From positions 18,676 through 82,675 of the forward strand of contig JAJECV010000070.1 in assembly GCA_022821875.1 (NCBI GenBank): a stretch of DNA of 64,000 bases, read 5' to 3'. Below are positions 1-52,669 of this stretch, one piece after another (the first letter of the stretch is position 1; every line of letters starts with the position of its first letter). The notes below the pieces were generated by a model that was not told where the DNA came from, did not search any database, and worked only from the letters and a program-made list of their open reading frames with translations. The position numbers and the translations under genes are program-made. This DNA is from Rhodothermales bacterium. Lineage in GTDB: Bacteria; Bacteroidota; Rhodothermia; Rhodothermales; Bin80.

Positions 1-675
1 GGCTTTTACGGGGTTGCGTTTGCGGCGATTGCTGTCCCAACCTCCTTTATTGCCCGATCTGTGGCCCATCCCTTTTTTATCAGCGCAGCGGAGGCGCACC
101 TGGCAGGAAATCTAGCCTCCATCACCTCGCTAGTCCATCGCCGCCTAGCCATGGTGGGCTTCTTCCCGGTGCTGGCCGTCATGCTTGCCGGGCCTGACTT
201 TTTCGAATTATGGCTTGGCGAAGAGTATCGTACAACCGGCATCTACGCCATCTATATTGCGGCATGGCTGGTTCTGGGCTCCATTGTATCTCCTCTGACA
301 CGTGTCTATGATGTAACCGAGCATCAGCGTCTGGATTTTATGATGGCAACCCTCCTGCTCGTATCGCTGTCTACCGCATCCATTCTGGGAGGACTCTCGG
401 GAAGTGTTGACAACATGCTGATCGCCGCCGGCATTACCGGCACCGTCATACGGGCCATCCAGTTAGTTGTAATTCTCCGGCTGGCGGGCGTTTCCTGGCG
501 CGAATGCATGCGCCCTTACCGGGATTTCCTGCTCTTATCCCTGCCGGGGCTGGCATTGATAACTGCGGCCCTGCTGCTTGACAACAGGTGGGCAACTACC
601 GGAGCGCTGATCCTGGGTACTGCCTGCTATTTTGGACTGGCCATCTGGAAGGAACGGCTTTTCGGAAACCTGTGA
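1..675 (+). CDS. Polysaccharide/oligosaccharide flippase (MOP/Wzx-type), C-terminal part; 5' end outside window
   Basis: Frame 1 is open from nt 1 (GFYGVAFAAIAVPTSF...) into the listed 61..675 ORF. The product is a series of hydrophobic helices with short loops, as in flippase C-terminal halves. The family call is by resemblance only. Confidence 0.5.
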   Translation, partial: GFYGVAFAAIAVPTSFIARSVAHPFFISAAEAHLAGNLASITSLVHRRLAMVGFFPVLAVMLAGPDFFELWLGEEYRTTGIYAIYIAAWLVLGSIVSPLTRVYDVTEHQRLDFMMATLLLVSLSTASILGGLSGSVDNMLIAAGITGTVIRAIQLVVILRLAGVSWRECMRPYRDFLLLSLPGLALITAALLLDNRWATTGALILGTACYFGLAIWKERLFGNL

Positions 676-14321: not shown

Positions 14322-16577
14322 ATGTTCAAGTTTGATGCAATTCAGTTTGCAGAGGGGGCGGTAAGCCTGCACCTGAATGCACTGGCAGTGCTGGTGCTGA
14401 TCGCCGTGCTGATCATTCTGGTGCTTGCGTTCCAGCGCAGCAAGGCCCCCCTGCATGTGCGGGGAACCAGCCTTGCACTGCGATTCCTCGCTGCGCTGCT
14501 GTTGATTTTTCCACTCTTTGAACCTCAATTAATTGTGCCCGAAGTAGTCCCTGACGAAAATTTTATTGCGGTCATGGTGGATGCTTCGGACAGTATGCTG
14601 CTTCCAGATGGCCCAGAGGGGCAGACCCGGCTCAATCAGACCCAGCAAATCCTTTATCATCCCCAGTCAGGGATACTCTCCGATATCAAGGATCTCTTCA
14701 AGGTCAGACTTTATACGTTCGCATCCGCGGTTGCACGTGTGGACAGTATCCACCAAGCGGTACCTGCACACGAAACCAACCTTGCCGCGGCATTGGACCG
14801 GGTGCGCATTGATTTTCGGGGGCTTCCCCTGACGGCAGTCGTCATCCTGACGGATGGTAATACAACCAGCCGTCTGGAGGCGCTGGAGCAGGCGCGTGCT
14901 CTTCGTGATCAGGGCATCGGGGTTCATGTACTGGGGATGGGGAGTGCGGCGTTTACGACCGAGCGGGAACTGCTGGAGGTCATTACACACAAGGGGCTGG
15001 GGGAGCAGGCCGGGGCAGAGCTTGAGGTAAAGATCCGCAGCGCCTCTCTGGAACCTGATCCGGCACGGATCACGGTTTATGACGCGGGTGTGGAGGTATT
15101 TTCTGAGTCGGTGCGGCTGAAGGGGAAGGGACTGGTGGATCAGATGGAGTTCTTTTTTGATCCTCCAAGCAGCGGTGCCCGGGAATACCGGATGACCCTT
15201 GAACCTGCGGCTGGCGAACTCAACATCCTCAACAACTCCCTCCCTCTTTTAGTGGATACCCGTACCGACACGCTGCGTGTGCTGTATTTTGAGGGGCATT
15301 TACGTCAGGATTATAAGTTTATTAAACGTGCTCTGGAATCCGATCAAGTGATCCACTTTGCCGCAATTACGCGTACGGGAACCGGCAAATACTACCGTCA
15401 GGGGATCCGGTCACCTGACGAGTTAACGGGCGGCTTTCCGACCGAAGCAGAGGTCCTCTATGGCTTTGATGCGATCCTTCTGGGTGATGTGGAGGCCTCG
15501 GCGTTCTCTCTGCGCCAGTTACAGCTCATGGAATCTTTTGTGCGTGTCCGGGGCGGCGGGTTCGTGATGCTGGGAGGGCGCAATGCATTCGCAGAGAGCG
15601 ACTATGCCGGTACCCCGGTTGCAGATATGCTGCCGGTGCGACTGGACTTTACCCGTGCACAGATTCTCCCGATCCAGTTTGAAAATAATGAAGAGGACGA
15701 ACGCGGCTATGTCTTTGCACCGACTCCGGAGGGTCTGGAGCATCCGTTCATGAAACTCTCCCCGGATGTGTCCCTGAATCAGATGCTTTGGCGTGGCATG
15801 CCCCGGCTCACCAGTATCAATCTGTTGGGCGGCATCAAGCCCGGTGCCCAGGTGCTGGCCGTCAAACCACAGGATGAGTACGGACCCGAGGAACCGGTTC
15901 TTGTGATCCAGCGGTACGGGAAGGGGCGAACTGCGGCACTGGCAACCAGCAGCACCTGGCGCTGGCAGATGCTGCTGGAGGCAGACGATGCGCGTCATGA
16001 GCGGTTCTGGCAGCAATTCGCACGCTGGCTGGCCGCAAGTGCACCGGGAAGAGTTGACCTGGAGACTTCCACCCCCCGGCTTTCCCCCGGTGAAGTACAT
16101 GAACTCGGCGTACGTGTCTACGATGCGGCCTACCTGCCGCTGAACGGCGTGAATGTGCGTGCCGCGGTCCGCACCCCGGACGGCACCCTGCAATCACTCA
16201 CAGCCCGTCAAAAACTGTCCGATGCGGGTGCCTTCCAGGTCCGCTTTACACCGGAGCAGGAAGGAGTCTACGAGATCATGGTTGAAGCCATGCAGGGGGA
16301 CCAGATGATCGGGCGTGATCACCGGAGTTATCTGACCGGTCACCAGCCCGTTGAGTATTATGATGCAACCCTGAAGCAGGGGTTTCTGGAGCAATTGGCG
16401 ACCATGTACTACGCGCCCGCCGATGCATCCGAGGTCCCCATGAATCTGCGGTCTCGTCGAACCAGCACCTCGATCTATCAGGCGGCTTATCTGTGGGATA
16501 TGCCGTTTCTTTTTCTTCTATCTGTACTTCTCTTATCTGGAGAATGGCTTTACCGAAGGCGACAGGGATTACGTTAG
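14322..16577 (+). CDS. Membrane protein with vWA domain (BatB-like) and large C-terminal domain
   Basis: N-terminal TM helices, MIDAS 'FIAVMVDASDSM', 'AVVILTDGNTT', and a C-terminal TM anchor (MPFLFLLSVLLLSGEWLY). Confidence 0.55.
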   Translation: MFKFDAIQFAEGAVSLHLNALAVLVLIAVLIILVLAFQRSKAPLHVRGTSLALRFLAALLLIFPLFEPQLIVPEVVPDENFIAVMVDASDSMLLPDGPEGQTRLNQTQQILYHPQSGILSDIKDLFKVRLYTFASAVARVDSIHQAVPAHETNLAAALDRVRIDFRGLPLTAVVILTDGNTTSRLEALEQARALRDQGIGVHVLGMGSAAFTTERELLEVITHKGLGEQAGAELEVKIRSASLEPDPARITVYDAGVEVFSESVRLKGKGLVDQMEFFFDPPSSGAREYRMTLEPAAGELNILNNSLPLLVDTRTDTLRVLYFEGHLRQDYKFIKRALESDQVIHFAAITRTGTGKYYRQGIRSPDELTGGFPTEAEVLYGFDAILLGDVEASAFSLRQLQLMESFVRVRGGGFVMLGGRNAFAESDYAGTPVADMLPVRLDFTRAQILPIQFENNEEDERGYVFAPTPEGLEHPFMKLSPDVSLNQMLWRGMPRLTSINLLGGIKPGAQVLAVKPQDEYGPEEPVLVIQRYGKGRTAALATSSTWRWQMLLEADDARHERFWQQFARWLAASAPGRVDLETSTPRLSPGEVHELGVRVYDAAYLPLNGVNVRAAVRTPDGTLQSLTARQKLSDAGAFQVRFTPEQEGVYEIMVEAMQGDQMIGRDHRSYLTGHQPVEYYDATLKQGFLEQLATMYYAPADASEVPMNLRSRRTSTSIYQAAYLWDMPFLFLLSVLLLSGEWLYRRRQGLR

Positions 16578-17521
16578 GCGTGATCCTGATCTTCATGGTC
16601 AGCGGTGCAAGTGCTCAACAGCGGCACGCACTGGTGATTGGCGGGTTAGGGGGCGACCCGGAGCAGACCGGCCGGATCGCCGCCCATCTGGAGAATACGT
16701 ACAATGCTCTGACCGGCCCGCTGGGATTTGAGCAGGGGCATGTGACGGTGCTGGCCGAGCGCGCCCTTGCCGGAAGCGAGTACGTTCACGGTGAATCGAC
16801 CGCCGAAAATATCCGTGCACAATTCGCTGCACTCGGCGAGGATCTGACCCCCGAAGATGAACTCTATATTCTGCTGTTCGGTCACGGGAGTTATGACGGC
16901 GAGCAGTCCGCGCTGAATATCCCCCGGCGGGATCTGGTCGGGAGTGACTATGCTGCGCTGCTGCGTGATCTGCGAGTGGAGCGAAGCATTTGGATTTGCA
17001 CCATGAGCGCCAGCGGCCCCTTTATTCAGGCCCTCAGCGCACCTGGCAGAATTGTGATCACCGCCACCCGGACCGGGACGCAGCGCAATCAGACGATCTT
17101 CCCGGATTATCTGATGGAAGCGCTCATTGCGCCGGCCGCAGATCTTGATCGTGATGGAAGCCTGTCCGTCCGGGAAGTCTTTCAGTATACCGCACAGCAG
17201 ACCGCACGGCATTATGAGCAGCAGGGGCATCTGGCCACCGAACACAGCCTGCTTGATGACAATGGAGACGGGCAGGGATCCCGCGTAGAGATGCTTGACG
17301 AATCTCTGGACGGATTTGCGGCGGCAGCCGTGTGGCTCAAACGGAGTCAAATGCTCGCAGGCAATCCCACGCTGGCCAGCGAACGTACCGAGCTCGAAAG
17401 CCAGATTGCGCTGCTCAAAGCACGTAAGGCAGGGCTGGAGGTGAACGCATATTATGCCGAACTGGAACTGCTTCTGGTCGCTTTGGCACGGCTCAACGAA
17501 CGTATTGAAGAGGAGTTGTGA
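16544..17521 (+). CDS. Secreted protein with caspase/legumain (C13)-like His...Cys pattern
   Basis: Signal peptide MALPKATGITLGVILIFMVSGASAQ, 'YILLFGHGS' and 'IWICTMSASG' spaced like a caspase-fold dyad, and a coiled-coil C-terminus. The start at ATG 16544 overlaps the upstream gene by 34 nt. Confidence 0.35.
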   Translation: MALPKATGITLGVILIFMVSGASAQQRHALVIGGLGGDPEQTGRIAAHLENTYNALTGPLGFEQGHVTVLAERALAGSEYVHGESTAENIRAQFAALGEDLTPEDELYILLFGHGSYDGEQSALNIPRRDLVGSDYAALLRDLRVERSIWICTMSASGPFIQALSAPGRIVITATRTGTQRNQTIFPDYLMEALIAPAADLDRDGSLSVREVFQYTAQQTARHYEQQGHLATEHSLLDDNGDGQGSRVEMLDESLDGFAAAAVWLKRSQMLAGNPTLASERTELESQIALLKARKAGLEVNAYYAELELLLVALARLNERIEEEL

Positions 17522-17819
17522 ATTGGCCTGATGAGAGATAAAAACATCCCTTTCGTCCTGATAAAGATTTTCGCGGTGCCTCCCCCGCATGACGAGTTCG
17601 GTAAGTGTTGATTTAGCGGCATCCAAATCCTGCCTTGCCCGGCGGAATAAACCCATCGCAACGTTCATCCCCTGACGCAGTACCACTGGACGATCAGGGT
17701 GCGTTTCAAAAACAGGAGGGAGATTTATTCTTTGCCGGCCCCTTCATGTTGTCTGCCTGACGCGGGCTTACAGGATATTGGAGTACTCATCAACTGCCGT
17801 TCCCATGTTTCTATACACC

Positions 17820-18989
17820 ATGAAAAATCTGATTCAAAATAATCATCTCCGTATGTACCCGGGTCTTTTCTGCGTACTCTTTCTGTTCGGGTGTGCGCGT
17901 GATACGGGATCCACCCGGGAAGAAGGCAAAACCTCAACAATTAGCCTGGAGGAAGTCCTTCGGATCGGCGATGAGGCAGCTGGAGATACGATCCTGTTTC
18001 GAACGATTGACCAGATTGCGGTCAATCGCAGTGGGGATCTGCTTGTGGCGGAAGGGACGCGATCCCCGCTGGTTCATGCATTTGATGCAAGTGGTTCGTA
18101 CCTGCGCCAGATCGGAGCACAGGGAGAAGGGCCGGGAGAATGGCAATACGGGATTGACGGCCCCGTCGTCGGGAAGGCAGATTCTGTATATCTGATGAAC
18201 CTGTACCCGAGGCAAATCTTTGTTTATGATCCCGTTGATTTTTCCTTCGTGCGCAGTATTGCTCTGGTGGCCGAGGGAGAAAACCAGTTCGGCTTCCTGA
18301 TTGGCACGGTTACGGGTGGATGGTATGTGACCTACGGACTTCCCGCAATCCTGGATTCCGAGGATGGTTCGATCATGGTCAACGAGGATCAATATTCGGA
18401 ACTGATCAAGATCAACCGGGACGGAAGTTACCGCACAGATCCACTTGGCAGGATTCCAGCAATGGAGATGATCTATCACATTTACCCTGAAGGAGGCGGC
18501 TTCGCCTTTCTCGATGTGCCCTTCGCGAGATCAGGAGGCTACCGCGTCGGTCCCGACGATTTGCTTTACCACGGCTGGAGTGAAAACATTGAAATCGCCA
18601 TCGTATCCGCTGACGGATCCGTGCGTGACACCATTCGCTATGCGCATGACCCGGTCCCTATTACAGACTTAGAAATGGCCGAGGCTTCAAAGATGGAGAA
18701 TGAGTTTTTTCAGCAAATCATGGATGATCACCATGAACCCCACGAGACGAAGCCGGGATTACAGACCTTTGTGGTGGATGAGAAGAGCCGCGTGTGGGTG
18801 AAGTTGAGTCAACCTGAAGGTGCAACCGAGGCCGAATGGCTGATTCTGAACCGGCAATCCCAGGCAGTTGCCCGTGCCACCCTGCCTGCAACCGTGGATC
18901 TGCAGGTGATTCAGGGCGGTTACGCCTACGGTGTGCAGCAAGGCGGCAGTGATGATCCAATGGTCGTGATTTACGAGATCCAGGAGTGA
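17820..18989 (+). CDS. Beta-propeller (6-bladed/NHL-like) lipoprotein, paralog 1
   Basis: It has a lipobox-like 'LFLFGC' and a 'GAQGEGPGEWQY' motif. It aligns along its full length with the 24687..25838 product (e.g. ETKPGLQTFVVDEKSRVWVKL / ETKPAFQTFVVDEMGRVWIKL). Confidence 0.6.
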   Translation: MKNLIQNNHLRMYPGLFCVLFLFGCARDTGSTREEGKTSTISLEEVLRIGDEAAGDTILFRTIDQIAVNRSGDLLVAEGTRSPLVHAFDASGSYLRQIGAQGEGPGEWQYGIDGPVVGKADSVYLMNLYPRQIFVYDPVDFSFVRSIALVAEGENQFGFLIGTVTGGWYVTYGLPAILDSEDGSIMVNEDQYSELIKINRDGSYRTDPLGRIPAMEMIYHIYPEGGGFAFLDVPFARSGGYRVGPDDLLYHGWSENIEIAIVSADGSVRDTIRYAHDPVPITDLEMAEASKMENEFFQQIMDDHHEPHETKPGLQTFVVDEKSRVWVKLSQPEGATEAEWLILNRQSQAVARATLPATVDLQVIQGGYAYGVQQGGSDDPMVVIYEIQE

Positions 18990-41027: not shown

Positions 41028-42395
41028 TTATTTACTCTCGCACTCCCGGATTTTCGGAGAAGGTATCTTTGAGTGATAGTAACTGGGCTGTATGCCTTCC
41101 ATGAATTGCTCAAGCCCAAGGGTTAGATCGCTACGATGCTCAACTGATGACCAGTCGGCCCAGTCCGCGGACTCTCCATATTCTACTCCCACATCAATAG
41201 ATGTATCACTGCACACTCCGGTACGATCCCCACGGATCGTTTCTCGAAGTGCCTTACAGTTGAGGTCCATATTAATCTGTGCGGCCTCATTATCGTCCTT
41301 ACTCACGCGAATGATCCCCTTCACATCATCCGTTTCCACTGATGTAATCGTCACCAGACTGTCTGCAAATCTGCCGGCCAAACTATGTGTTCCACTGTCT
41401 TTGCAATAGTAACCGTGCTCCTTATCAAGCCCAACAGGCTGAAAACCTGTTCCTTCATAAGCCAGCCAGTCGAAATTGGCCTGCCCGGTTAAGGAGCCTA
41501 GAGTTATGGTCGTATGCTTCACCCCCAATCCAATATCCTCAATAGACTCCGTAAACTCTGTTGCCAGATTGTGTACAGGGTTGTTTTCACGGCTATCCCC
41601 CCCTGGCCTCCGTCCCATAATGAGAACATAGATTGGCCTCTTCGCAACTGCTTCCATGGACTGATAGCGCTGCTGGCCTTCATGAAACCAGCAGCCTAAA
41701 GGTCCGGGTACCGAACGACATGTTCCACTGTGTACCCCCCAGTAATCAATGCGAATGCCTACGATGGCAACATCAATTTCACCTGCATTGTAGTATGCCC
41801 TTATTGCTGGATCTTTGAAGTACGGCAGCAGGGCTGTAGCCCCGATTCCATAGTTGGTAGTCGTAATCAAATCAGTAACCAGTGCTGCCCCTTTGAGCGT
41901 GCCGCTCTTGAGTCCTTCAATCACATCTCGAATGCCCTGATCCAGACGGGATTCTCCACCGGTAAAAAATCCTCTGTTCAAAGTGCTTTCACAATCTACC
42001 GTTGTAATGGAATCCGTGATTCCAAGGCACTTGAGCGAAGACTCCCCGCCCCCGTAATCTGTGGTCAATCGCGCACTCTTCAATAAATTGTGGATCCTCT
42101 GAAGCGCGTCCTGACTGTCTGGATTCGTCCGATGAACATATCCTCCCATCGGAATAGACTGATCCCAAAGAAGTTGAAAAACATGCCTGACCGAGTCACG
42201 GTCTACCGATTCCCATAATGCCTCCGAATCCTCCCATACCGGTTCAACTTCCGCAGTGACGCTGAGAAACTCACCTTCTTCTCCATCCGAAGATGAGGCG
42301 CAGCCAATTTGCAAAAACATCCCGGTCACCAGAAATCCTGCACCCACGATTGTCATCCACCACTGCGTGTCGCTATTGGAGCCTTTCCGTATCAT
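41028..42395 (-). CDS. Lipoprotein of unknown function (455 aa)
   Basis: TM/signal 'WWMTIVGAGFLVTGMFLQIGCASSS' with a lipobox-like Cys, and several further Cys residues. It has an ATGA overlap with the upstream gene and a 2-nt gap to the downstream gene. Confidence 0.6.
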   Translation of the reverse strand: MIRKGSNSDTQWWMTIVGAGFLVTGMFLQIGCASSSDGEEGEFLSVTAEVEPVWEDSEALWESVDRDSVRHVFQLLWDQSIPMGGYVHRTNPDSQDALQRIHNLLKSARLTTDYGGGESSLKCLGITDSITTVDCESTLNRGFFTGGESRLDQGIRDVIEGLKSGTLKGAALVTDLITTTNYGIGATALLPYFKDPAIRAYYNAGEIDVAIVGIRIDYWGVHSGTCRSVPGPLGCWFHEGQQRYQSMEAVAKRPIYVLIMGRRPGGDSRENNPVHNLATEFTESIEDIGLGVKHTTITLGSLTGQANFDWLAYEGTGFQPVGLDKEHGYYCKDSGTHSLAGRFADSLVTITSVETDDVKGIIRVSKDDNEAAQINMDLNCKALRETIRGDRTGVCSDTSIDVGVEYGESADWADWSSVEHRSDLTLGLEQFMEGIQPSYYHSKIPSPKIRECESK

Positions 42396-42946
42396 ATTTG
42401 CGTCTGTGTTCGTGGTTTACCGGTGGATTTCAAATCCGCAACGAATTCCTGAATGTTTTCCAGGCGATTTAATGCATCCCTGAGGATTGAGGCTTGATGA
42501 TTCCGGCGGCGGTCAAGTTGCCGCAGTACTCCATTCGCCAATTTCATCGCCCCTTTGACCGGTAGAGAAAGTAACCTAGAAGAAATCTGAGTACCCCGCC
42601 CGGATGTTTTTTGTGACCGAGAATAAACTGCTCTGGAATCCCCCTGCACTTCTGCCGGAAGTTCTCTCATTGTCTGAAATCGGGGCAAATTCTCTGCAAC
42701 ATCCAGCATATTTTGAAGGACACGTTGATCCAGCGAAGCGGGACGGCGATGTATTTTTGCATCAAGGCGACCCAGTTTTTCAATCACTGACTGGATAACT
42801 GGAATCGCCCCCCATTTGACCAGGAGAGAAGAAATCCGCAGCAGGACTGCTTCGTATAGAGAAATGCTGATCAGCGACAGATGGGACACAAGAAGCATGA
42901 AGCCTTCAAAATTTAGACTTGGCTCATTCATTGTAATCACAAACAT
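42392..42946 (-). CDS. Small helical protein with hydrophobic N-terminus (184 aa), unknown function
   Basis: ORF in an operon context. 'FMLLVSHLSLISISLYEAVLLRISSLLV' could be a TM or amphipathic anchor. No motif was recognised. Confidence 0.5.
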   Translation of the reverse strand: MFVITMNEPSLNFEGFMLLVSHLSLISISLYEAVLLRISSLLVKWGAIPVIQSVIEKLGRLDAKIHRRPASLDQRVLQNMLDVAENLPRFQTMRELPAEVQGDSRAVYSRSQKTSGRGTQISSRLLSLPVKGAMKLANGVLRQLDRRRNHQASILRDALNRLENIQEFVADLKSTGKPRTQTQI

Positions 42947-42992: not shown

Positions 42993-45900
42993 CTATCCTT
43001 CCTGGAATTCCCTTGACTTGAGCACATTCTCCCAGATAAGGGCTGCAATCGGTGCATCTACCGTATCATCACTCCGCGTTGCCTCGTCACCCGAAATGCT
43101 GTCATTGATTTCTTTCATGAAGATATCTTCAATCCTTTTTACGCCTTCGCCACTATTTGGAGAATGTATAATGAGCGGTGGATTGAATTCACCAATACAC
43201 AAACTAACCGACCTGCTGACTCCCTCAAATGGAAGTTTCTCATACCAATTTCTCCGTTCATCTTCGGTCCCTCTACTAAGGAGCAGCACATCCGACAAAG
43301 GAAAGCGATGGCTTCCCGCAACCGCTTTCTCCGGGCTCATACTCTTGCCGACCGCATGCTTAATTGGTCCGAGTTTCGGCGGCGAATCGTCCTTGTAATC
43401 AGCCGGGTACCACACCTTTTCTAGTGAAATACCCTCAAAGCCTACTTCTTTCCAAAGTTTGATGGCACGCTGCTTCACCCACTCTTCCATATCTTCCTGA
43501 ATCTCCTTATAACTCGTTCTACGGTACCAAAGACGCCACCCATTCCCCTTGAGATGGACGATGAGTTTTAACTTCTGAAGATCGCTCTCCGATTCCAGTA
43601 ACGGTAAGACATTTTTCGCAACATAGGCGACGAGGTTGCGAGCCAGAAAATCATTAATGACCCGGAAGTATCGATTGATTAATTCCCTTGCATCATTAGC
43701 ATCCTGAGGCTTTTCAAACCCCTTAAGTTTTAAAGCATCAGCACTCCAGTTCCTGCTCTGAGTTCCGAACAATTTCTCTGATCCAACCGAGCGCATCCAC
43801 GCACGTAGTTGTTCAAATGCCTTATCCGGCTTCCAGCCTCTATTCCTTGGCAAGTATTTTTCTGAGTGCCTTGCTAAAACTTGAAGAAGAAGATCACTCC
43901 CCATCTTTACACTTTCCGCCACCTCGCCAAATCCCCTGTCCTCAGACCCATAACTGTCTATATCCTTCGTCGCCATGAATATATCCAATGTTCCACCACC
44001 TAAATCAGCCACAAGTTTCACCGCAATCGGAATTCCTGGCCCTATTGAATCGAATGCGGCACTTGACTCGCTGTATAGCCCATTACCTTTGGCCCCTTCA
44101 CGGCCTTCCGTGAGCATGAACTTCGATCCAAGATCATCTTCACAGACATCCAATACCTTAACGACTACTTCCCCATAACGACTTGTAGCCTGCGTGGTGG
44201 TTCCACGCAAAGGGTACGTGAAAGTGACCTCAACTGTCCCAGGCAAACTCTCTTCACGCTTAGCGATATCTGCCAGGAAAATTTCGATTGCCATCCTGAG
44301 ATACCTCTCCCGAAGCCATTCTTCCTTCTGCGTAAATCGACCTCTATCCATCTCCCATTTGAACCCGGATATAATATGATTCTGGAGATCTGAGCGCTGC
44401 AGTTGCATAACGGGGATTGCATAATGCGTCATCGGAGCCCATTCATCCTTGAATCTCTCGGTCTCTACAGAATCAAGCTCTCCGAAAGACCAGAGATCTG
44501 ACGGCAGTAGCGCCTTTGATATTTTGTCCTCTTCCCCCTTTTTATAGGTTGGTCGCCATGTATCCAGTCCCATCTCTGCAAGGTGACCATCATAGTTTTG
44601 ACTGATATGCAACGATAAGCCATCCTCACCTGACAGTTCATTGTTAAGATTGACCAAATGTTTCTCATTAATCTGGTATGCGGCAACGGTATGGGAAGTC
44701 CCAAAATCTATGGCGAGTTTCCAGGTATTCTCGTCTCTGGAATATTCCTTCAGGCAAATTACATAGATCCCCGCATCACGATCTGTTTTGTGATCGTAGG
44801 CAGATAAAGCTACAGGCGGCCCTCCCACGTGTCGGCCATCCTTGAAATCCACGGCCTGACTGTATCCAGGGCGACTCAGTGGTCGCTTCTTCAACTCGGA
44901 CAGACTGCCTTCCTTGTCCAGATAAATGGTTTGAGCCTCCAGTCTTGGAGAATTCTCATACAGATAATAAGCACGCCACTGCTCCTTCCCGTTCGGCGCT
45001 TTAATGTTGGGCCAGATCATCCAGTGAGCATTTGAAGATTCGATACCATCCACAGAAATCGTGACCGGAACTGGTTCAGATCGCCCCAGAAGATCCAAGT
45101 TCCAATGAACGACTTTACGCCCTCTATCTACATTACCGGATTGTTTGAGCCGTCTCCAGGCATGGTCGTGATCTATGCATTTTTCTCCCTCATTTTTCTC
45201 GCCTTTCGGGATCTTCAAGAGATCAATGTAATCCGGGCGAAGCGGAATATCTGGATATAGCGTTTTATTTTCTCCGGTTCCATTCACCGATTTTTGGGTC
45301 AAAGGGACACAAGTATCAATCTGAATCGTTTCCCTGTCAATGACCTGCAGGTTCCGGATGTAGATTGGCTCTTCGCCTAACGTTTCCCTGATCCAGATGC
45401 CTCTATTCTCTTGGTCCCTCCTCCACGCAAAAATTTTACGCGTTTCCTGAAGTTGATCCAAATGCTCCCTCCATATTGCTCCAATCGTATAGTCAATATT
45501 TCTGGGCAATCGAAAGTTCTTGATGATCTCGAATGTTTCAGATTTGCGAGATTTCTCAACGGTACACTTTTCAAACTCGGGGACTCCGCTGATCAATTCA
45601 TCAATGCTTTTCTCCGCACCCTTTCTGCCGGGATCAAGATCTTCAAACAGATACAGAGAATCCCCCATAACGGGCATGGGGATTTTTACGTCGCCGCCCG
45701 GTAAAGGCAGCCATTCTGCAACCCCGAACGGACCGGCTTCCGCGTCCAAATGCGTGTCTAAGACATCAACCCAGATCCGGGAAGTCTCTTTGGCAACTTT
45801 GTCCTTAACATGGCTTTCCACGCAGTTCAGCCAACCTCTGACACACTTTCTGGCTTTTTCCCCCTCGAATCCCCAATCCGTAGAATCCCTCCAGGCGGAT

Positions 45901-48059
45901 TTGTCCTGATTATCAGAGCCAACTTTGTCTTTCACGCGGTCTGCTGCACGCTTGAGAGTGCCGCCGAGATATTTCCCGACTTTTCCGACTTCGTCTCTCC
46001 AATTCTTTGATCTCCAGTCAACATCCCAATGAATCCCCGTCAGGTCTTTCCAGAGACTTTCCCAATCTTCATTACTTACGTCTGGCGCGGGGCAGAGAAA
46101 TGTCTCCGGTGAATTGAACCCGTACACCTTACCGCTCTTCTGATGAATCAGACGGTACTCCGCTATATCTGTATCTGTATCCTTGATCAGACGCTCAAGA
46201 GACAGAAAACTCCGCCCATTTCTGGTTTCAACCTTCTGCAGTTCCAGTACGCCAATCGCTCGTCCCACCAAGAGCATTTCAAGTTTGCGCAGAGCAACAG
46301 GACTCTGATATACAATCTGGAACTTGTACTCTTCTACCACCGCAATATGATGTGGCCAGCTATTGGGGGACACATGGTCACGGTCAAAGTAATATTCAAC
46401 CGTACTACTGATCTTATCATCCGACACCTTTCCCAGTTCACCGGGTGCCCCCCATGTCGGTAAGAGCCCCGTATCGTTTTTGGAATCAATATCAGGCCAA
46501 TAGCCCTGCCCTTCGCGTGCCTTCCCTGACTTTTTGGCCAATTGCAGATTCTCCCATTCATCTTTAATCCAATGTGCAAGCCAATGAAAAAGACCCAATG
46601 CCATACACTCAACCTTGTCCAAATCGGACAGGCGTGTATTCTGTAACTCGGAAACACTGGGCAGTGACTTCTTTTTCAGTCGTTTAATGCATTCTTTCTC
46701 CGAAAGAAAGAATTTCCCTCCCTTCTCCTCCACACTGCGGCCCTCATATTGAATATCTCCCCGGCTTTCCTTTCCCAGCGACGATATCCATGCCAGAAGT
46801 TCCCGATAGGTATGCCGGATGGAATCCAGTTCATCTGCGACTTCTTTCAGGCTTGAACGATCATTCCGCAACTCTGAATTTGCCCAGTCAACAATGGCAG
46901 GGACAGGAGTCTGACCTGCAAAAATGAAGAAATTAGAAAACGATGCGTACCCTCCGTCTTTCGCGTTCTCTCCCGTTTTTCTTAACACATCGGAAAACTC
47001 TCCGAGTAGATATGTGAGGATCTGTGCATGACCGATCATCTCACGCAAGGTAGCGCCACTATCCTCCTTAATGATCATATCACCGGTCAGATAATCAGCA
47101 TCCGATGCCGATACACCATACAATCCTTCTTTGATTTCACGATCCTTTGTCGTCAGAAAGTATTTTATTCCTGCCAGTGCCCCGACCGCATGGGCATAGG
47201 AGTCCAAGGAGGGCTGTTGATTGTCGGATGTGTATTGGCGCAAGATTCTTCTATGATCCGGCACGCCTACCAGAACGGTAGGTACTTTTCTGGCCAAATC
47301 TTCCCCGTAGGATGCAAGTCCACCAGCTGCGTTCTCCTTCATCACCTTATTGCGTTCAACGGACTTGTCAAACTTCTCCCTTGATTCATCAGGCCTGCTG
47401 AACTGGAACCATCTATGCACCATGATCGCCATCACCTCAGCTTTCTTTTCCTTACACAGACGGGCAAGAGTTGGAGTGACAGATGAACCCGTTCCGCCGA
47501 CACTTGAACCGCAAACCACCATCCGCCGATCTCCACAATCGTTCAGCATATCGTTATAAGCCTCATCGTAATTCGGCTTACCCTTCCCCTCAATATCTAA
47601 CTCTTTGAGTGCAAACAGAAGCGACCCCACCGCAGGGGAGGCCATCATCCCCAGGGAATAGGTGATCTCCCGCTGTGCTTCGGATGTGATTAACGGGAGT
47701 CTGGGCGATCCCTTGAACTTGTACTTCAGGCGATGATTCGGGGGCTTATACCAATCTTTGCCTTCCCCGACAGGTAATGGACTGACATCCCGGCAGATTG
47801 GTTGATCCGGGCGACCGAAGAATTCCGCAAGATCATATTTGCCTGGGTGATTCTTGATTAAATTTTTGACTTCCTGCCAGGGAGTACTCTCCTCTTGCTC
47901 TTTCCCATCACCGGAATCCTGATCAACCAGAAACAGGTCTGGGAAATTTTTGCCTGCTTTGACAAAGAAGCCAAATGGGTATCCCAACATATGGAGACGC
48001 ACCATTGCCAGCATTACATGGGCACCAGTGCCCCCACACGCGATGAAACGATTATTCAT
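42993..48059 (-). CDS. Giant (1688 aa) protein: N-terminal FtsZ/tubulin-like GTPase motifs plus C-terminal actin/Hsp70-like (ASKHA) ATPase motifs
   Basis: At aa 5-20, 'FIACGGTGAHVMLAMV' is T1-loop-like. At aa 181-220, 'VVCGSSVGGTGSSVTPTLARLCKEKKAEVMAIMVHRWFQF' parallels FtsZ 'GGGTGTGAAPVIA..AKE.G.LTV.VVT.PF.FEG'. At aa 1114-1127, 'KLAIDFGTSHTVAA' is phosphate-1-like. At aa 1346-1363, 'AVKLVADLGGGTLDIFMA' is phosphate-2-like. No TM helix is present. Confidence 0.6.
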   Translation of the reverse strand: MNNRFIACGGTGAHVMLAMVRLHMLGYPFGFFVKAGKNFPDLFLVDQDSGDGKEQEESTPWQEVKNLIKNHPGKYDLAEFFGRPDQPICRDVSPLPVGEGKDWYKPPNHRLKYKFKGSPRLPLITSEAQREITYSLGMMASPAVGSLLFALKELDIEGKGKPNYDEAYNDMLNDCGDRRMVVCGSSVGGTGSSVTPTLARLCKEKKAEVMAIMVHRWFQFSRPDESREKFDKSVERNKVMKENAAGGLASYGEDLARKVPTVLVGVPDHRRILRQYTSDNQQPSLDSYAHAVGALAGIKYFLTTKDREIKEGLYGVSASDADYLTGDMIIKEDSGATLREMIGHAQILTYLLGEFSDVLRKTGENAKDGGYASFSNFFIFAGQTPVPAIVDWANSELRNDRSSLKEVADELDSIRHTYRELLAWISSLGKESRGDIQYEGRSVEEKGGKFFLSEKECIKRLKKKSLPSVSELQNTRLSDLDKVECMALGLFHWLAHWIKDEWENLQLAKKSGKAREGQGYWPDIDSKNDTGLLPTWGAPGELGKVSDDKISSTVEYYFDRDHVSPNSWPHHIAVVEEYKFQIVYQSPVALRKLEMLLVGRAIGVLELQKVETRNGRSFLSLERLIKDTDTDIAEYRLIHQKSGKVYGFNSPETFLCPAPDVSNEDWESLWKDLTGIHWDVDWRSKNWRDEVGKVGKYLGGTLKRAADRVKDKVGSDNQDKSAWRDSTDWGFEGEKARKCVRGWLNCVESHVKDKVAKETSRIWVDVLDTHLDAEAGPFGVAEWLPLPGGDVKIPMPVMGDSLYLFEDLDPGRKGAEKSIDELISGVPEFEKCTVEKSRKSETFEIIKNFRLPRNIDYTIGAIWREHLDQLQETRKIFAWRRDQENRGIWIRETLGEEPIYIRNLQVIDRETIQIDTCVPLTQKSVNGTGENKTLYPDIPLRPDYIDLLKIPKGEKNEGEKCIDHDHAWRRLKQSGNVDRGRKVVHWNLDLLGRSEPVPVTISVDGIESSNAHWMIWPNIKAPNGKEQWRAYYLYENSPRLEAQTIYLDKEGSLSELKKRPLSRPGYSQAVDFKDGRHVGGPPVALSAYDHKTDRDAGIYVICLKEYSRDENTWKLAIDFGTSHTVAAYQINEKHLVNLNNELSGEDGLSLHISQNYDGHLAEMGLDTWRPTYKKGEEDKISKALLPSDLWSFGELDSVETERFKDEWAPMTHYAIPVMQLQRSDLQNHIISGFKWEMDRGRFTQKEEWLRERYLRMAIEIFLADIAKREESLPGTVEVTFTYPLRGTTTQATSRYGEVVVKVLDVCEDDLGSKFMLTEGREGAKGNGLYSESSAAFDSIGPGIPIAVKLVADLGGGTLDIFMATKDIDSYGSEDRGFGEVAESVKMGSDLLLQVLARHSEKYLPRNRGWKPDKAFEQLRAWMRSVGSEKLFGTQSRNWSADALKLKGFEKPQDANDARELINRYFRVINDFLARNLVAYVAKNVLPLLESESDLQKLKLIVHLKGNGWRLWYRRTSYKEIQEDMEEWVKQRAIKLWKEVGFEGISLEKVWYPADYKDDSPPKLGPIKHAVGKSMSPEKAVAGSHRFPLSDVLLLSRGTEDERRNWYEKLPFEGVSRSVSLCIGEFNPPLIIHSPNSGEGVKRIEDIFMKEINDSISGDEATRSDDTVDAPIAALIWENVLKSREFQEG

Positions 48060-48075
48060 GTCTTCTCAGATTATT

Positions 48076-48384
48076 TTATTTCGCTTTGTTGGATTTCTTC
48101 TTTTTATAGGATGAAGTTCTTGCATGGAAAATCCCAAATCCCATTGCACAACTGGCAACGCATCCCAGGAACGCTCCTAGAACATGAGTCCACTTTTGCG
48201 CATCAGAGCAATCAGCACCGAAGAAAAGCCCGGCAAGAAAAAACGGGAGCAGTATTACGATAAACGGAAATAACTGAGCAGCAGAAAGCTTCGGTGCCGA
48301 CTCAGTTCTCCGGAGATTCCATTTACGTACAGCCCGACTTTGTAGAAAATAAAAGGCACCGTAGATAACAAGACTGACCAACAC
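48076..48384 (-). CDS. Multi-pass membrane protein; the reading frame continues upstream to a lipoprotein-type signal peptide and a C14 tract
   Basis: The ORF-track start is GTG 48384. The same frame is open up to 48540 and encodes 'HFLSKTSVLVLLFTVTGCSRLD' (signal plus lipobox VTGC). The two upstream ATGs (48551, 48544) are out of frame at the present tract length. Confidence 0.6.
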   Translation of the reverse strand: MLVSLVIYGAFYFLQSRAVRKWNLRRTESAPKLSAAQLFPFIVILLPFFLAGLFFGADCSDAQKWTHVLGAFLGCVASCAMGFGIFHARTSSYKKKKSNKAK

Positions 48385-48518
48385 CGCGACAAAGAATGTC
48401 TCTATAAACCCAAGGGTATAGTTGGTACCTGAGAACCCGCTCTGGCAGACCGTATCAAGTCGGGAACAGCCTGTAACTGTAAATAAGAGTACTAAAACCG
48501 AGGTTTTAGATAAAAAAT

Positions 48519-48532
48519 GGGGGGGGGGGGGG
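48519..48532 (-). repeat. Homopolymer G14 (C14 on the coding strand) in the 5' end of the first operon gene
   Basis: Direct count gives gg + gggggggggg + gg at 48519-48532. Confidence 0.95.
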
Positions 48533-49244
48533 TATTTTGTTCATGTGTCATTTTAGACTTTGAATTTGGGCGGATGACACTATCCCCCGTCACGGACATG
48601 CACCCCTGATGTATGGCACCGGAGGAACTCGCCGAATGTCTATGTCCTGCAAATCGTGAAGTGCTCATGGGATCTGACAATGTTGAAACGCCAAATATAA
48701 TGCATGGAGATGTTTTCACCAAACCGGCGGCATAATTGGGGACTTGCTGTTCCCCCCATGGGGATTTGGTTGCGGCCAGTCCGATTCGCAGTTCGCGGTA
48801 AACAGGGTCAGGACAGATCCGTAATTCGCGGCCGCAAAGAATCCGTTTAGGCTACCAGAGAATACAATTCAGAGCATTGTCACATCATGCTGCGGGGCTG
48901 CAGTGAACATGCAAGACACGTTGGATGTAGGAAAATGTACCCGTTTGAAATCCTTGAGATCCTGCAAAAATCTGAATAGTAGCCAGAGGATAGATACTCC
49001 ACACTCAAAGAGACAAGCCATCGTACTCCAAAAGTTCAAATGTGAAACCACATAATTGTGGGACTCTGTCGGCAATCACCAAAGTTGCCGACTGTCTAAT
49101 CCTGATGTGAGAATTTTTTGACCCCGGTATCGGGCGGACATATCCCTCCAGAGAATTTACTCTCGGAGCGAACAGAGAAACCCTCAATAATTGATTGAGA
49201 TTTGAAATCCTGCACAACCAACAAACCTCCAATCCCCCGCATCA

Positions 49245-50322: not shown

Positions 50323-51711
50323 TCAAAACTTACTGGAGATTTTCAGGGCAACCTTTGTCAAATCGTAGGATATTGTCATGCCTGCCGGATGGCGCTTGCT
50401 CTTGGCGTAGTTTGTCCGCTCTTCCCAAATTGATTTGCCTCTTGAGATGTTGGCATCCACTTCTTGCACAAGAAGTGGATGCAGGGGGAAATTCTCAAGA
50501 TTGGTACGCGTTAAATGGAACCCATCGCCAACTGTACGCCAGTAATCCAAGAATAGATCTGATGACATGATGAGGACGGCTTTGTACAAGTCGACCTCTG
50601 TTTTGAAGCGCAGCCGAAGAACCCCAGATGAATGATGCTCACGAAAGCCCATAAAATTTCTCGCAACACCCGATATGTACAGCGAATGTATACCATCTGC
50701 CGCCAGAATGGTTTTCAGTGGAGGATACAAATGAGCATCCTTGAGTAAGTTCAGGATGGCGGCATTTTCCGGCCGTAGAAATTGCCCGCCAAAATTGTAT
50801 CCGGTTATATCATGATAGCAAGGGGTAGAATTCAGCAGTCTGCTGCGATCCTTTTTCCTCCACCGATGCATTCGTGTGGACAGTGTTCTGGGATTGTCTT
50901 CAGGAAATACGGTGACGATTGAGCACCGCTGGCTATTGGCCTTGTTTGTGTTTTTATGTTTAGGCTTCCCACTCGAAAAGAGGCAGTCAGGGATATTATC
51001 AAAACTGGAAATCGCAACACTCTTCCCGGAATTTCTCATCATGGATCGCAATTCCACATAGTCGCGACTAAAGGCGACTGACAAAGGCAGAATGAAATGA
51101 ACCGAACCATGTTCTCCACTCTCTGTCAGCGCACGCTCCAGGAAATCTGCGAAGCTATTTTTCCATCGGCTCCCCTTGGGATTCGCTACATATGGAGGGT
51201 TTCCAAAGAATAATGGCTTCTTGGATGATCCAGAGGGTGCGTAGTGAAGAAAATCGGTACACACATACCTAATGTCTGAGAAAGAGAGACCCCATTTTTT
51301 TGAAATTTTCTGAATTTCGTCACGGGCAAAGTCTAGTGCTTTGGGGTTGATGTCAATTAATGTGATTTCAGCAGATGAAAGGCAGTCCAATGGTAAGCCA
51401 AGTTCGACAACCTTTTTGAGTAACGCATACACAAGGATTCCTGCACCAGATGCAGGCTCTATGAAGTGGTGTTCCTGCCAGAAAGCCTTGATGTCCTGCT
51501 CTTCAGAAATACCATTGAGCACCATGAATTCGTTCCAGAAGAACGCGGCGGCATCTACGGGTGTATAATACGCACCTACCTTCTTGCGGGCATCTTCGGA
51601 CTGACAGGGCGACGAGTAGGATAGCGTCAACTCCGCCTTTTCGGAATGCCTTAATACCTCTTCAAGACCCGCTACCCATTCTGATCTCCAGTCCCCGTTG
51701 CAGATTTTCAT
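50323..51711 (-). CDS. N6-adenine DNA methyltransferase (gamma-class, Eco57I-like)
   Basis: Motif X 'GAYYTP', I 'IEPASGAGIL', IV 'FFGNPPYV'. The start is uncertain (ATG 51711 or 51777), and both overlap the HNH gene's 3' end. Confidence 0.8.
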   Translation of the reverse strand: MKICNGDWRSEWVAGLEEVLRHSEKAELTLSYSSPCQSEDARKKVGAYYTPVDAAAFFWNEFMVLNGISEEQDIKAFWQEHHFIEPASGAGILVYALLKKVVELGLPLDCLSSAEITLIDINPKALDFARDEIQKISKKWGLSFSDIRYVCTDFLHYAPSGSSKKPLFFGNPPYVANPKGSRWKNSFADFLERALTESGEHGSVHFILPLSVAFSRDYVELRSMMRNSGKSVAISSFDNIPDCLFSSGKPKHKNTNKANSQRCSIVTVFPEDNPRTLSTRMHRWRKKDRSRLLNSTPCYHDITGYNFGGQFLRPENAAILNLLKDAHLYPPLKTILAADGIHSLYISGVARNFMGFREHHSSGVLRLRFKTEVDLYKAVLIMSSDLFLDYWRTVGDGFHLTRTNLENFPLHPLLVQEVDANISRGKSIWEERTNYAKSKRHPAGMTISYDLTKVALKISSKF

Positions 51712-52669
51712 TGGATGGTTCGTATTCCTGGGAAACGGGTTTGGCGAATCTTGTATGGTGCAACGATTCAATCGCATCTAGCCCCTTTGCTTGTTTTTCT
51801 TGTCTGAGATACTCCGCTCGGTCCTGATTGAAGATCAGGAGATTATCTGGTCCTGGTAGCAGCAAAGCAGTATCGTAGAGAGCATGATGCTCAATACACA
51901 ATGCTAGGCCATTGTCTACTGTATTGGGAGAATTATGGACAGAATGGGGGATGATGTGTGCTGCTTCCACAATTCCCAGTTGCCGCTTACAGACACAACA
52001 TGCGTGCCCATAGGCCGCCAATACTTTTTTCTTGAATTGTGGATCACGAGGAAACGCTTTTCGTGTGTAAGAGAAGCGCATCCGTTTCTCACTTGTGGAA
52101 GTGGTCTCTCCCTCAATTGAAAGGAAATTCGCAGAATAAGAGTCACGAACAATTCTTTGAATGTCTTCGTCAGACCGCAGACGATGAAAGTGCTGTATGT
52201 TTTGCAGATAGAAGCCCAGCGAATCTGAAGTCAGGGCGATTTCGGATGTATTCTCTTCCATGTATTTTGCAGAAAATGTGCGGACAGCGGCAGAACACTC
52301 TTCAACACGTTCCTTCTGCGTTTGCCTTGCATATACCGACACCATTCTTCTGGCTTGAAGTGTGAAAATATACATCGGATCCCAAGCCGTAAATACCCTG
52401 CCGCCTTCAAAGAAGCCAATAAACGCAACATTCATTCTTCCCTCCCGGCGACTGCGTTGCTTATCAATATACTTTCTAGGAATTTGAATCCGCACCTCGT
52501 CGTCATTGGATCGCCGGTTCCCCGAATCATGCACCTGTGAGATATGCAACGAATGTAGTATTCCATTAAACTGGACAATCACGGGATTTGACCTGTCTTT
52601 GATCACAAAGTCCTCAAAGTATGGCCTCAATGAATCCTGAACGAAATGATACAATAGATCCCGCTTCAT
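51662..52669 (-). CDS. HNH endonuclease (putative restriction enzyme)
   Basis: 'CCVCKRQLGIVEAAHIIPHSVHNSPNTVDNGLALCIEHHALYD'. ATG 52669 forms an ATGA overlap with the C5-MTase stop. Confidence 0.8.
   Translation of the reverse strand: MKRDLLYHFVQDSLRPYFEDFVIKDRSNPVIVQFNGILHSLHISQVHDSGNRRSNDDEVRIQIPRKYIDKQRSRREGRMNVAFIGFFEGGRVFTAWDPMYIFTLQARRMVSVYARQTQKERVEECSAAVRTFSAKYMEENTSEIALTSDSLGFYLQNIQHFHRLRSDEDIQRIVRDSYSANFLSIEGETTSTSEKRMRFSYTRKAFPRDPQFKKKVLAAYGHACCVCKRQLGIVEAAHIIPHSVHNSPNTVDNGLALCIEHHALYDTALLLPGPDNLLIFNQDRAEYLRQEKQAKGLDAIESLHHTRFAKPVSQEYEPSNENLQRGLEIRMGSGS

Follow-up and report, generated by a model that had tools for sequence, protein, structure and literature searches.

Cytoskeletons rest on two pillars, the tubulin-fold and the actin-fold nucleoside triphosphatases (NTPases), and the locus described here raises the question of whether a single bacterial polypeptide can carry one of each and, if so, what such a protein would do. 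The locus lies in a Rhodothermales bacterium (GenBank assembly GCA_022821875.1, contig JAJECV010000070.1), of which we analysed positions 18,676-82,675 of the forward strand; this stretch of 64,000 nt is called the window below, and coordinates are those of the window. An intact minus-strand open reading frame (ORF) at 42993-48059 encodes a protein of 1688 aa, referred to here as the giant protein. An earlier, sequence-only reading had proposed that it carries FtsZ/tubulin-type nucleotide-binding signatures near its N-terminus and actin/Hsp70-type signatures near its C-terminus, with about 800 aa of Trp-rich sequence in between. Both the ORF and every peptide quoted in support of that proposal are found in the giant protein, the nucleotide positions given for the motif peptides being shifted by an immaterial 3-12 nt, and the Trp-rich stretch separating the two domains measures 724 aa with 3.6% Trp. 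Here we report that the joining of a tubulin/FtsZ-type domain and an Hsp70-type ATPase domain in one bacterial protein is supported by structure models, and we examine the operon, the relatives and the possible functions of this protein.

The N-terminal half was modelled with AlphaFold 2 (AF2) over aa 1-815 from a 29-sequence alignment, giving a predicted local distance difference test score (pLDDT) of 84.5, close to 90 over aa 1-360, and a predicted template modelling score (pTM) of 0.87. When the model was compared with the PDB by Foldseek, the top 50 matches consisted solely of FtsZ, TubZ, CetZ and alpha-, beta- and gamma-tubulin (probability 0.82-1.0, 265-380 aligned columns, template modelling score TMt 0.22-0.48), headed by B. 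subtilis FtsZ (4u39_C; E 1.6e-3, probability 1.0, TMt 0.45). Phage tubulins/PhuZ ranked top in the independent viral library BFVD. At fold level the model contains the Rossmann-like GTPase domain, the central helix and the C-terminal subdomain of the tubulin/FtsZ superfamily, and the proposed kinship with that superfamily, the only one retrieved in the top 50, withstood the structural comparison.

Sequence comparison reaches less far along the domain. The T1 and T4 signatures are both present, T4 in the variant form VGGTG(S/A)S of the signature GGGTG[ST]G with G188, G189, T190 and G191 invariant, and the T4/H4/S5 segment aligns with CetZ, Pfam Tubulin and E. coli FtsZ. The FtsZ-like pattern first noticed by eye in this segment was reproduced by hhalign and hmmsearch against an E. 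coli FtsZ sequence; as only S4-T4-H4-S5 aligns with it, the equivalences of T1, T2 and T3 stay by-eye assignments. Pfam Tubulin (PF00091, cut-off 33 bits) is matched at 19.2 bits by the whole protein and at 23.4 bits by the N-domain alone (aa 171-214, E 8.3e-5). Sub-threshold matches to it occur in 34 of 39 N-domains, and no other family recurs except Tubulin_2 (PF13809), found in five of the 39, again always below the cut-off (best E 2.2e-4). The best match of an N-domain profile among PDB sequences was a non-significant one to CetZ at the T4 loop (E 1.3). At the position expected for T7, between a helix (aa 288-302) and a strand (aa 312-318), lies a stretch of nine residues (aa 303-311) that is not conserved. 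GTP binding by the tubulin-like domain is likely from its loop motifs; since the T7 co-catalytic loop is not evident, tubulin-style polymer-activated hydrolysis is not implied.

For the C-terminal half, modelled over aa 800-1688 (pLDDT 87.6, pTM 0.89), the top 50 PDB matches were solely Hsp70/DnaK/BiP (E 6.6e-11 to 1.2e-8), among 313 matches at E <= 1e-3, and the model has the two-lobed actin-like ATPase fold. TMt was 0.50-0.56 against isolated nucleotide-binding domains (NBDs) and 0.33-0.45 against full-length Hsp70 chains. The sequence-only reading had placed this region among the Hsp70/MreB/FtsA-type ASKHA ATPases; the actin-type fold held up under this comparison, and its affinity proved to be with Hsp70 rather than with MreB or FtsA. 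The phosphate-1, phosphate-2 and adenosine motifs and the catalytic Lys and Glu of ASKHA ATPases are all present, which shows, at the level of motifs, that the domain keeps the full set for ATP binding and catalysis. Hidden Markov model (HMM) alignment with DnaK and Hsc70 places YSES.AA on NEPTAA and DLGGGTLD on DLGGGTFD, and a C-domain profile found 94 matches among PDB sequences (E 0.004-0.02), the best 60 of the 94 being all Hsp70-family chaperones. No significant match to an ASKHA model was found for the C-domains in Pfam (HSP70, PF00012, appeared in one of 39 at E 0.38), and no clear Hsp70 substrate-binding domain was found in the C-terminal half. Because PF00012 is not reached and isolated NBDs match better than complete chaperones, the giant protein resembles Hsp70 without belonging to the Hsp70 family as such.

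The middle region, for which no relative was recognised and whose profile gave a single noise match among PDB sequences (E 1.2), passes in the AF2 models from helical bundles through alpha/beta parts to a beta-rich part. It contains conserved Trp, Pro and Cys residues, and its conservation is undetectable in the most divergent giants. From the absence of any hydrophobic window resembling a transmembrane (TM) segment we infer that the giant protein is cytoplasmic. Single-sequence searches with the whole protein returned nothing from PADLOC or PHROGs, one noise match each from NCBIfam (E 0.2) and PDB sequences (E 0.8), and from Pfam the weak Tubulin match only. Sequence methods alone would not decide both folds, and it is structure prediction, through the two models above, that settles the question.

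A search of 5.8 billion protein clusters returned 129 homologues of the giant protein at 30-97% identity, nearly all of them full length (1568-1753 aa), without a Pfam domain and named only "hypothetical". Across 48 aligned giants the invariant positions are C8-H14 (CGGTGAH), D46/D48, G184/S185 and G188-G191 in the N-domain, and D1118-H1123, K1234, E1331-S1332, D1352-G1355, D1359 and G1505-W1508 in the C-domain. The motifs are more than chance, because they stay invariant in these 48 full-length homologues down to 30% identity. When 1.84 billion representative proteins were searched exhaustively with the N-domain HMM, no more than 465 matched at E <= 1e-3 (141 at E <= 1e-10), so the family is rare.

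Among 185,579 species genomes scanned, 53 loci for giants came to light (numbered L below, with P for individual proteins). Their hosts belong to Rhodothermales, Acidobacteriota (Vicinamibacteria, Thermoanaerobaculia, Bryobacterales), Gemmatimonadota (Longimicrobiales) and Latescibacterota; the carriers of full-length homologues in these four groups are metagenome-assembled genomes (MAGs). The distribution of the operon is patchy, with up to three paralogous operons per genome. Locus L007 (OZ241874.1, 94-22876) holds two complete paralogous operons in head-to-tail arrangement, whose giants are P0033 and P0016; in the second operon an inserted 1114-aa ORF (15124-18465) separates the giant from the small gene, and the same genome holds a third operon copy, L005. 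Seven loci (L025, L030, L034, L045, L049, L050 and L052) have an interrupted giant ORF with open stretches of only 287-1204 aa, and a word-indexed search for N-domain homologues returned mostly gene fragments, many of them short N-terminal ones, which suggests frequent pseudogenisation, or else assembly frameshifts. The giant protein had no tblastn match in plasmid or phage collections, and the element is therefore not known as plasmid- or phage-borne. Many of the carrier bins bear names (CAR3, RHO3, COS1, SB0662 and bin80, for L003, L006, L039, L040, L045 and L053) which we take to come from studies of marine-sponge symbionts, and going by these names the family may be enriched in sponge-associated bacteria.

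The pairing of the two domains extends beyond the full-length family. Every divergent giant (1285-1969 aa) recovered by the exhaustive search keeps both the tubulin-like and the Hsp70-like domain in local HMM searches, and a second class from that search comprises tubulin-like proteins of about 460-513 aa that stand alone. The two halves do occur as separate genes, and as neighbours: in L054, L056 and L057 a stand-alone tubulin-like gene (about 470-510 aa) has a small multi-TM gene on its 5' side and an ASKHA gene (1014-1109 aa) directly 3', and in one of these loci the stop of the tubulin-like gene overlaps the start of the ASKHA gene. The three ASKHA genes match the C-domain profile at E 4e-8 to 7e-37, and two of the three bear precomputed Pfam matches to Ppx-GppA, FtsA or MreB. 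The association of a tubulin-like with an Hsp70-like domain is thus ancient, and the occurrence of the halves both fused and side by side is the classical sign of a functional pair; because the pairing is conserved over deep divergence, also as adjacent genes, the two activities would be expected to work together.

Two further observations concern these relatives. The divergent giants at L058 321-5564 (P0216, 1747 aa) and L060 762-6671 (P0209, 1969 aa) have weak or faint precomputed Pfam Tubulin_2 matches and bridge the family to FtsZl1, P0209 also having a TerD domain. The slot after the ASKHA gene of L057 (8947-11235) encodes a 762-aa protein in which a signal peptide, a long coiled coil and a TM segment of poly-Val are combined with three repeats at the C-terminus.

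In the window the giant protein is the product of the second gene of a six-gene operon (Table 1), all on the minus strand, in the order small three-TM lipoprotein, giant, small variable protein, lipoprotein resembling a von Willebrand factor A (vWA) domain, ZorA-like protein and ZorB-like protein. Its intergenic distances are 16, 46, -4, 2 and -1 nt and its order recurs in about 40 loci from four phyla, so that the operon is shown to be conserved and translationally coupled. Consensus scans of the operon found fewer promoter-like sites than in shuffled sequences and no convincing terminator inside it. Homologues of gene 1 lie directly 5' of the giant in 32 loci (119-294 aa as called, most about 145-215). 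Gene 3, which overlaps gene 4 by 4 nt, has, by iterative search, homologues in no more than 13 loci, all of Rhodothermales, and in other phyla its slot holds a different gene of mostly about 90-390 aa. Gene 4 follows the giant in 47 of the 53 loci; its family conserves D78, S80, P82, G85, D175 and T179 together with an N-terminal Cys, and its homologues beside split and divergent giants carry the canonical DxSxS (DTSLS in L057, DVSQS in L059, DGSGS in L060). Its product, which has no Pfam match and no match among PDB sequences, appears vWA-like, to judge from these residues.

Genes 5 and 6, detected by tblastn in 21 and 36 loci respectively, resemble the motor pair of Zorya. Gene 5 matches PADLOC ZorA at E 2.7e-9, and its family profile matches the PDB chain of ZorA 8qyd_A (E 5e-5, over the TM motif and the tail) as well as 8qyy_A, 8vvn_C and 8vvi_F. 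It has the MotA/ExbB-type TM domain and long helical tail by which ZorA is defined, and scores far under the NCBIfam cut-off for ZorA_3. The periplasmic part of gene 6 contains two conserved Cys; the family profile matches the MotB-related chain 8vvn_B (E 0.008), and ZorB1 matches at the gene 6 position reach E 1.3e-46 in L007 and 1e-7 to 6e-9 in L020 and L021. Among the giant, the 184-aa, the 455-aa and the upstream proteins, PADLOC gave no match to ZorC, ZorD, ZorE, ZorF or ZorG.

Table 1. Features of the giant protein and its operon (window coordinates; residues are those of the giant protein)
Feature	Residues (aa)	Position (nt)	Strand	Basis or remark
Giant protein (gene 2), 1688 aa	1-1688	42993..48059	(-)	no hydrophobic TM-like window; homologues without Pfam domain or name
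Predicted N-terminal tubulin/FtsZ-fold GTP-binding domain	1-370	46950..48059	(-)	AF2 and Foldseek (PDB, viral libraries)
Segment FIACGGTGAHVMLAMV	5-20			peptide of the sequence-only reading
T1-like CGGTGAH	8-14	48018-48038	(-)	invariant; T1 equivalence by eye
T2-like DQD	46-48		(-)	by eye
T3-like LGMMASPAVG	136-145		(-)	by eye
Segment CGSSVGGTGSSVTPTLARLCKEKKAEVMAIMVHRWFQF	183-220	47400-47513		peptide of the sequence-only reading
T4 GSSVGGTGSSVTPT	184-197	47469-47510	(-)	T4/H4/S5 aligned by sequence
Trp-rich middle region	371-1094	44778..46949	(-)	AF2 secondary structure
Predicted C-terminal Hsp70-like ASKHA ATPase domain	1095-1688	42996..44777	(-)	AF2 and Foldseek; profile against PDB sequences
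Segment AIDFGTSHTV	1116-1125	44685-44714		peptide of the sequence-only reading
Phosphate-1 DFGTSHT	1118-1124	44688-44708	(-)	DFGTSH (1118-1123) invariant
K1234	1234		(-)	invariant
NEPTAA-like YSESSAA	1329-1335		(-)	E1331-S1332 invariant in YSES.AA
Segment VADLGGGTLDIF	1350-1361	43977-44012		peptide of the sequence-only reading
Phosphate-2 DLGGGTLD	1352-1359	43983-44006	(-)	DLGG and D1359 invariant
Adenosine motif LKGNGWRL	1503-1510	43530-43553	(-)	GNGW (1505-1508) invariant
Gene 1, small membrane lipoprotein		48076..48551	(-)	lipobox ...LLFTVTGC, then three hydrophobic segments
C14 tract then ATTTTTT, candidate slipped-strand switch		48519..48532	(-)	seven codons past gene 1 ATG
Gene 3, 184-aa protein		42392..42946	(-)	hydrophobic N-terminus, helical C-terminus, fast-evolving
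Gene 4, 455-aa exported lipoprotein-like, putatively vWA-like		41028..42395	(-)	LLWDQSIPMGGY (D-x-S-x-P, degenerate metal-ion-dependent adhesion site, MIDAS), ALVTDL
Gene 5, ZorA-like, 524 aa		39451..41025	(-)	three TM, GIGGTMG typical of MotA/ExbB/TolQ, ~380-aa helical tail
Gene 6, ZorB/MotB-like, 218 aa		38795..39451	(-)	N-terminal TM helix, invariant W11 and D16 (WPAITDLMT)

Gene 1 of the window is in an OFF frame: its ATG (48551-48549) and the lipoprotein body lie in different reading frames, and because the C14 tract throws this ATG out of frame the only canonical-start ORF is a truncated one of 102 aa (48076-48384). A C-tract followed by T6 lies at the same site in nine related Rhodothermales loci, with lengths of 10, 10, 10, 11, 12, 12, 13 and 14 (14 in the window); the loci sharing the window's tract position are L001, L002, L005, L007, L009, L011, L016 and L030. 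An in-frame start of gene 1 is present in some tract loci, among them a 97%-identical relative with C10, and absent in others, and two Acidobacteriota loci, L022 and L049, have C19 and C22 tracts upstream. The tract is therefore a candidate contingency (phase-variable) locus, with homopolymer sequencing error in MAGs as the alternative.

The copy in the window sits in a low-GC defence island. From about 27 to 64 kb the GC content is 0.46-0.52, against 0.55-0.64 further left, and this part encodes AIPR, HTH with IrrE/M78, DUF6932, DprA/SLOG-like and MTaX1-HNH proteins, a C5 DNA methylase, a DEAD/DEAH helicase and a large ATP-binding protein. Between the DprA/SLOG-like and MTaX1-HNH genes lies a 484-aa ORF (50323-51777, minus strand) that has no Pfam match and is kept in L001 and L002, the two closest relatives. 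At the other loci, 132 flanking ORFs include transposases, PIN, Uma2, AAA_14/DUF4143 (PDC-S01), PDC-S03, ZacA, mad6 and PD-T4-6.

The reading that we prefer, and to which we give an even chance, is that the operon encodes a new ZorAB-coupled and probably anti-phage system whose cytoplasmic partner is the dual-NTPase giant; the two folds with their motifs, the pairing of the NTPase domains, the conserved operon, the likeness to ZorAB and the variable poly-C tract speak for it. In Zorya, the proton-driven motor ZorA5B2 detects phage invasion and relays this via its tail to soluble effectors (PMC11946911). By this analogy the ZorAB-like pair would form a proton-driven 5:2 stator anchored in the envelope, with the TM Asp of the ZorB-like protein carrying the proton, and the two lipoproteins might serve as periplasmic sensors or anchors that help the stator to register how an invading phage perturbs the envelope. 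From there the ZorA tail would carry the signal to the giant protein, acting as receiver and effector in place of ZorC, ZorD, ZorE, ZorF or ZorG; GTP binding by the tubulin-like domain could govern either self-assembly or a switch of conformation, ATP could power the Hsp70-like domain in clamping or remodelling a target or in resetting the assembly, and the poly-C tract could toggle a costly system on and off within the population. The turnover of the operon supports a role in defence, because its distribution is patchy, paralogous operons occur, they stand in tandem in L007 and seven giants are disrupted.

Several observations weigh against a ZorAB-coupled defence system. The PADLOC ZorA match of gene 5 falls mostly in the coiled-coil tail, a region that draws compositional matches, the ZorB match of gene 6 in the window is weak (E 0.013), and no OmpA-type or peptidoglycan-binding domain was detected in that gene. 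No nuclease or other recognisable effector domain was found, unlike in Zorya I-II; a conserved T7 loop, which bears on polymerisation, is not evident in the alignment of the giant family; and the differences in poly-C tract length could be homopolymer sequencing error. The flanks of other loci are mixed, with many housekeeping genes (tRNA synthetase, EF-Tu, transporters), and are at most suggestive of a modest enrichment of defence islands outside the window. Finally, no ZorAB-like pair was detected beside the split and divergent relatives (L057 included), which retain the small TM gene and the vWA-like gene; for this reason the motor is a one-clade addition, made in the clade of the window, to a core of small TM protein, tubulin-like domain, Hsp70-like domain and vWA-like protein.

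That core is what gives substance to the main alternative role, which we regard as possible though doubtful: a housekeeping or adaptive machine for the envelope and for membrane remodelling, related to the FtsZl1-vWA-OmpA systems predicted by Makarova and Koonin. In it the giant protein would organise or power rearrangements of the membrane or cell surface, for instance for vesicles, for the display of surface proteins or for host attachment in sponge symbionts, and the motor would supply force across the envelope from the proton-motive force (PMF). The core common to all relatives comprises the small TM, tubulin-like, ASKHA and vWA-like lipoprotein components and leaves out ZorAB; the theme of a tubulin-like protein with vWA and envelope proteins is that of FtsZl1 (PMC2875224), and some divergent members match Tubulin_2 weakly. 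Such a machine would also account for the lack of a nuclease or toxin domain and for the many housekeeping genes flanking other loci, and phase-variable tracts are typical of surface structures too. Set against this are the long-tailed ZorA, an architecture known to date from Zorya defence alone (PMC11946911, PMC11890865), the position of the window locus within a dense defence island of foreign GC, and the diverged paralogous operons per genome and frequent pseudogenes, which fit defence turnover. If instead the Hsp70-like part did the work and the tubulin-like part were a GTP switch that forms no filaments, the giant could be a membrane-tethered chaperone for quality control or secretion that handles unfolded or exported polypeptides. 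The structures nearest to it are indeed those of genuine Hsp70 chaperones, full-length DnaK and BiP in the ATP state among them, none of the Hsp70 catalytic motifs varies, and a T7 loop for polymer-activated GTP hydrolysis is not evident; the lack of a clear substrate-binding domain, isolated NBDs being the best matches, together with the rarity of the family (465 of 1.84 billion representatives) and its island location, which sit badly with general proteostasis, make this improbable.

Still less probable, to the point that we rejected it, is a cytoskeleton of cell division or of chromosome or plasmid segregation, in the manner of a fused FtsZ-FtsA or of TubZ. The two NTPase folds are paired as in FtsZ-FtsA, and FtsZ and TubZ stand among the Foldseek matches, but the ASKHA domain is Hsp70-like and not FtsA- or ParM-like, no dcw-cluster or partition genes lie near the window locus, no T7 loop is evident, and the family is patchy, multi-copy, pseudogene-rich and absent from the plasmid and phage collections. 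That the resemblance goes no deeper than glycine-rich motifs, with neither fold present, is the view to which we give the least credence of all. It could draw on the Pfam Tubulin scores of 19-23 bits against a cut-off of 33, on the best E of 1.3 for the N-domain profile among PDB sequences and on C-domains that match no ASKHA family in Pfam; it was rejected on the two AF2 models, which retrieve only the expected superfamilies in the PDB top 50, with phage tubulins in BFVD, and it is opposed as well by motifs that stay invariant across about 70% sequence divergence and by the split ASKHA genes that bear precomputed Ppx-GppA, FtsA or MreB matches in Pfam.

We rate the giant protein as a new branch of the tubulin superfamily and a new Hsp70-like branch within a new ZorAB-coupled system of predicted function. 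In the literature, of which our coverage is incomplete, we came across no account of a fusion between the tubulin and Hsp70 folds, nor of a ZorAB pair with such a partner, in line with the earlier remark that no characterised fusion of a tubulin-fold GTPase with an actin-fold ATPase is known. Whether the operon serves in defence or in the envelope, two new sequence families, one in the tubulin/FtsZ superfamily and one among the Hsp70-like ASKHA proteins, have been missed by Pfam, NCBIfam and PADLOC. A ZorAB-coupled defence system of this composition would add a fourth kind to the Zorya-like systems, one whose effector is not a nuclease; it would widen the range of signalling by 5:2 ion-driven motors and offer a tractable case for the dialogue between the ZorA tail and its partner. 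An envelope machine would provide a related, testable example for the long-standing FtsZl1-vWA prediction. More speculatively, and in our view with the balance of probability well against it, the tubulin-fold and Hsp70-fold proteins could be an ancient obligatory pair, fused or encoded as neighbours, always accompanied by a small membrane protein and a vWA-like lipoprotein and wired in one clade to a proton-driven, ZorAB-type rotary stator. By rotating or changing conformation, the ZorA tail would seed a cytoskeleton-like assembly of the giant as the immune output, and the poly-C tract would turn this on and off in the population. Triggered at the envelope and fed by three energy sources (PMF, GTP and ATP), such a machine would represent a class not described before, with a "cytoskeletal" effector and not a nuclease.

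Zorya I-III, among the closest of the known systems, shares with the operon a MotA-like three-TM protein with a very long helical cytoplasmic tail, a MotB-like partner with a conserved TM Asp, encoded side by side and in one operon with large soluble partners, and a location in defence islands (PMC11946911, PMC11890865). The known types combine ZorAB with ZorCD, ZorE or ZorFG (PMC11890865), whereas here the type-defining ZorC-G give way to a giant of tubulin and Hsp70 fold together with a small protein and two lipoproteins. The gene order runs the other way, zorAB coming last, the operon has no recognisable nuclease, and the ZorB-like protein of the window lacks a detectable OmpA-type domain. 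A close counterpart of the N-terminal domain is FtsZl1/Tubulin_2 (PF13809), likewise a large protein with a highly diverged N-terminal tubulin/FtsZ-like GTP-binding domain in which T6-H7-T7 is hard to recognise, and predicted by Makarova and Koonin (2010) to belong to a membrane-associated machine encoded in operons with vWA and envelope proteins (PMC2875224). What follows this domain is a coiled coil and a helical C-domain in FtsZl1, but the Trp-rich region and the Hsp70-like ATPase in the giant, and in place of the P-loop GTPase and kinase that accompany FtsZl1 the window operon has the ZorAB-like motor.

The C-terminal domain shares with the NBD of Hsp70 (DnaK/BiP) the two-lobed ASKHA fold and the phosphate-1, NEPTAA-like, phosphate-2 and adenosine motifs, and differs from it in an identity of about 10-14%, in large insertions (about 450-590 aa against about 380) and in its fusion to a tubulin fold. 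The nearest precedent for an Hsp70-like ATPase module joined or adjacent to a GTPase in a predicted defence system is CoCoNuT, a type IV restriction system in which an Hsp70-like NBD and substrate-binding domain are joined to the McrB GTPase in some variants and split from it in others (PMC11090510). The GTPase there is an AAA+ McrB and here a tubulin fold, the Hsp70-like motifs are degenerate there and invariant here, and the partners, in CoCoNuT McrC and nucleases, are in the window operon lipoproteins and ZorAB-like proteins. FtsZ-FtsA, finally, offers the same principle of a tubulin-fold GTPase coupled with an actin-fold (ASKHA) ATPase at the membrane; those proteins are separate, belong to different families and are essential, single-copy products of the dcw cluster, whereas the domains of the giant are fused or encoded as neighbours, accessory and carried on an island.

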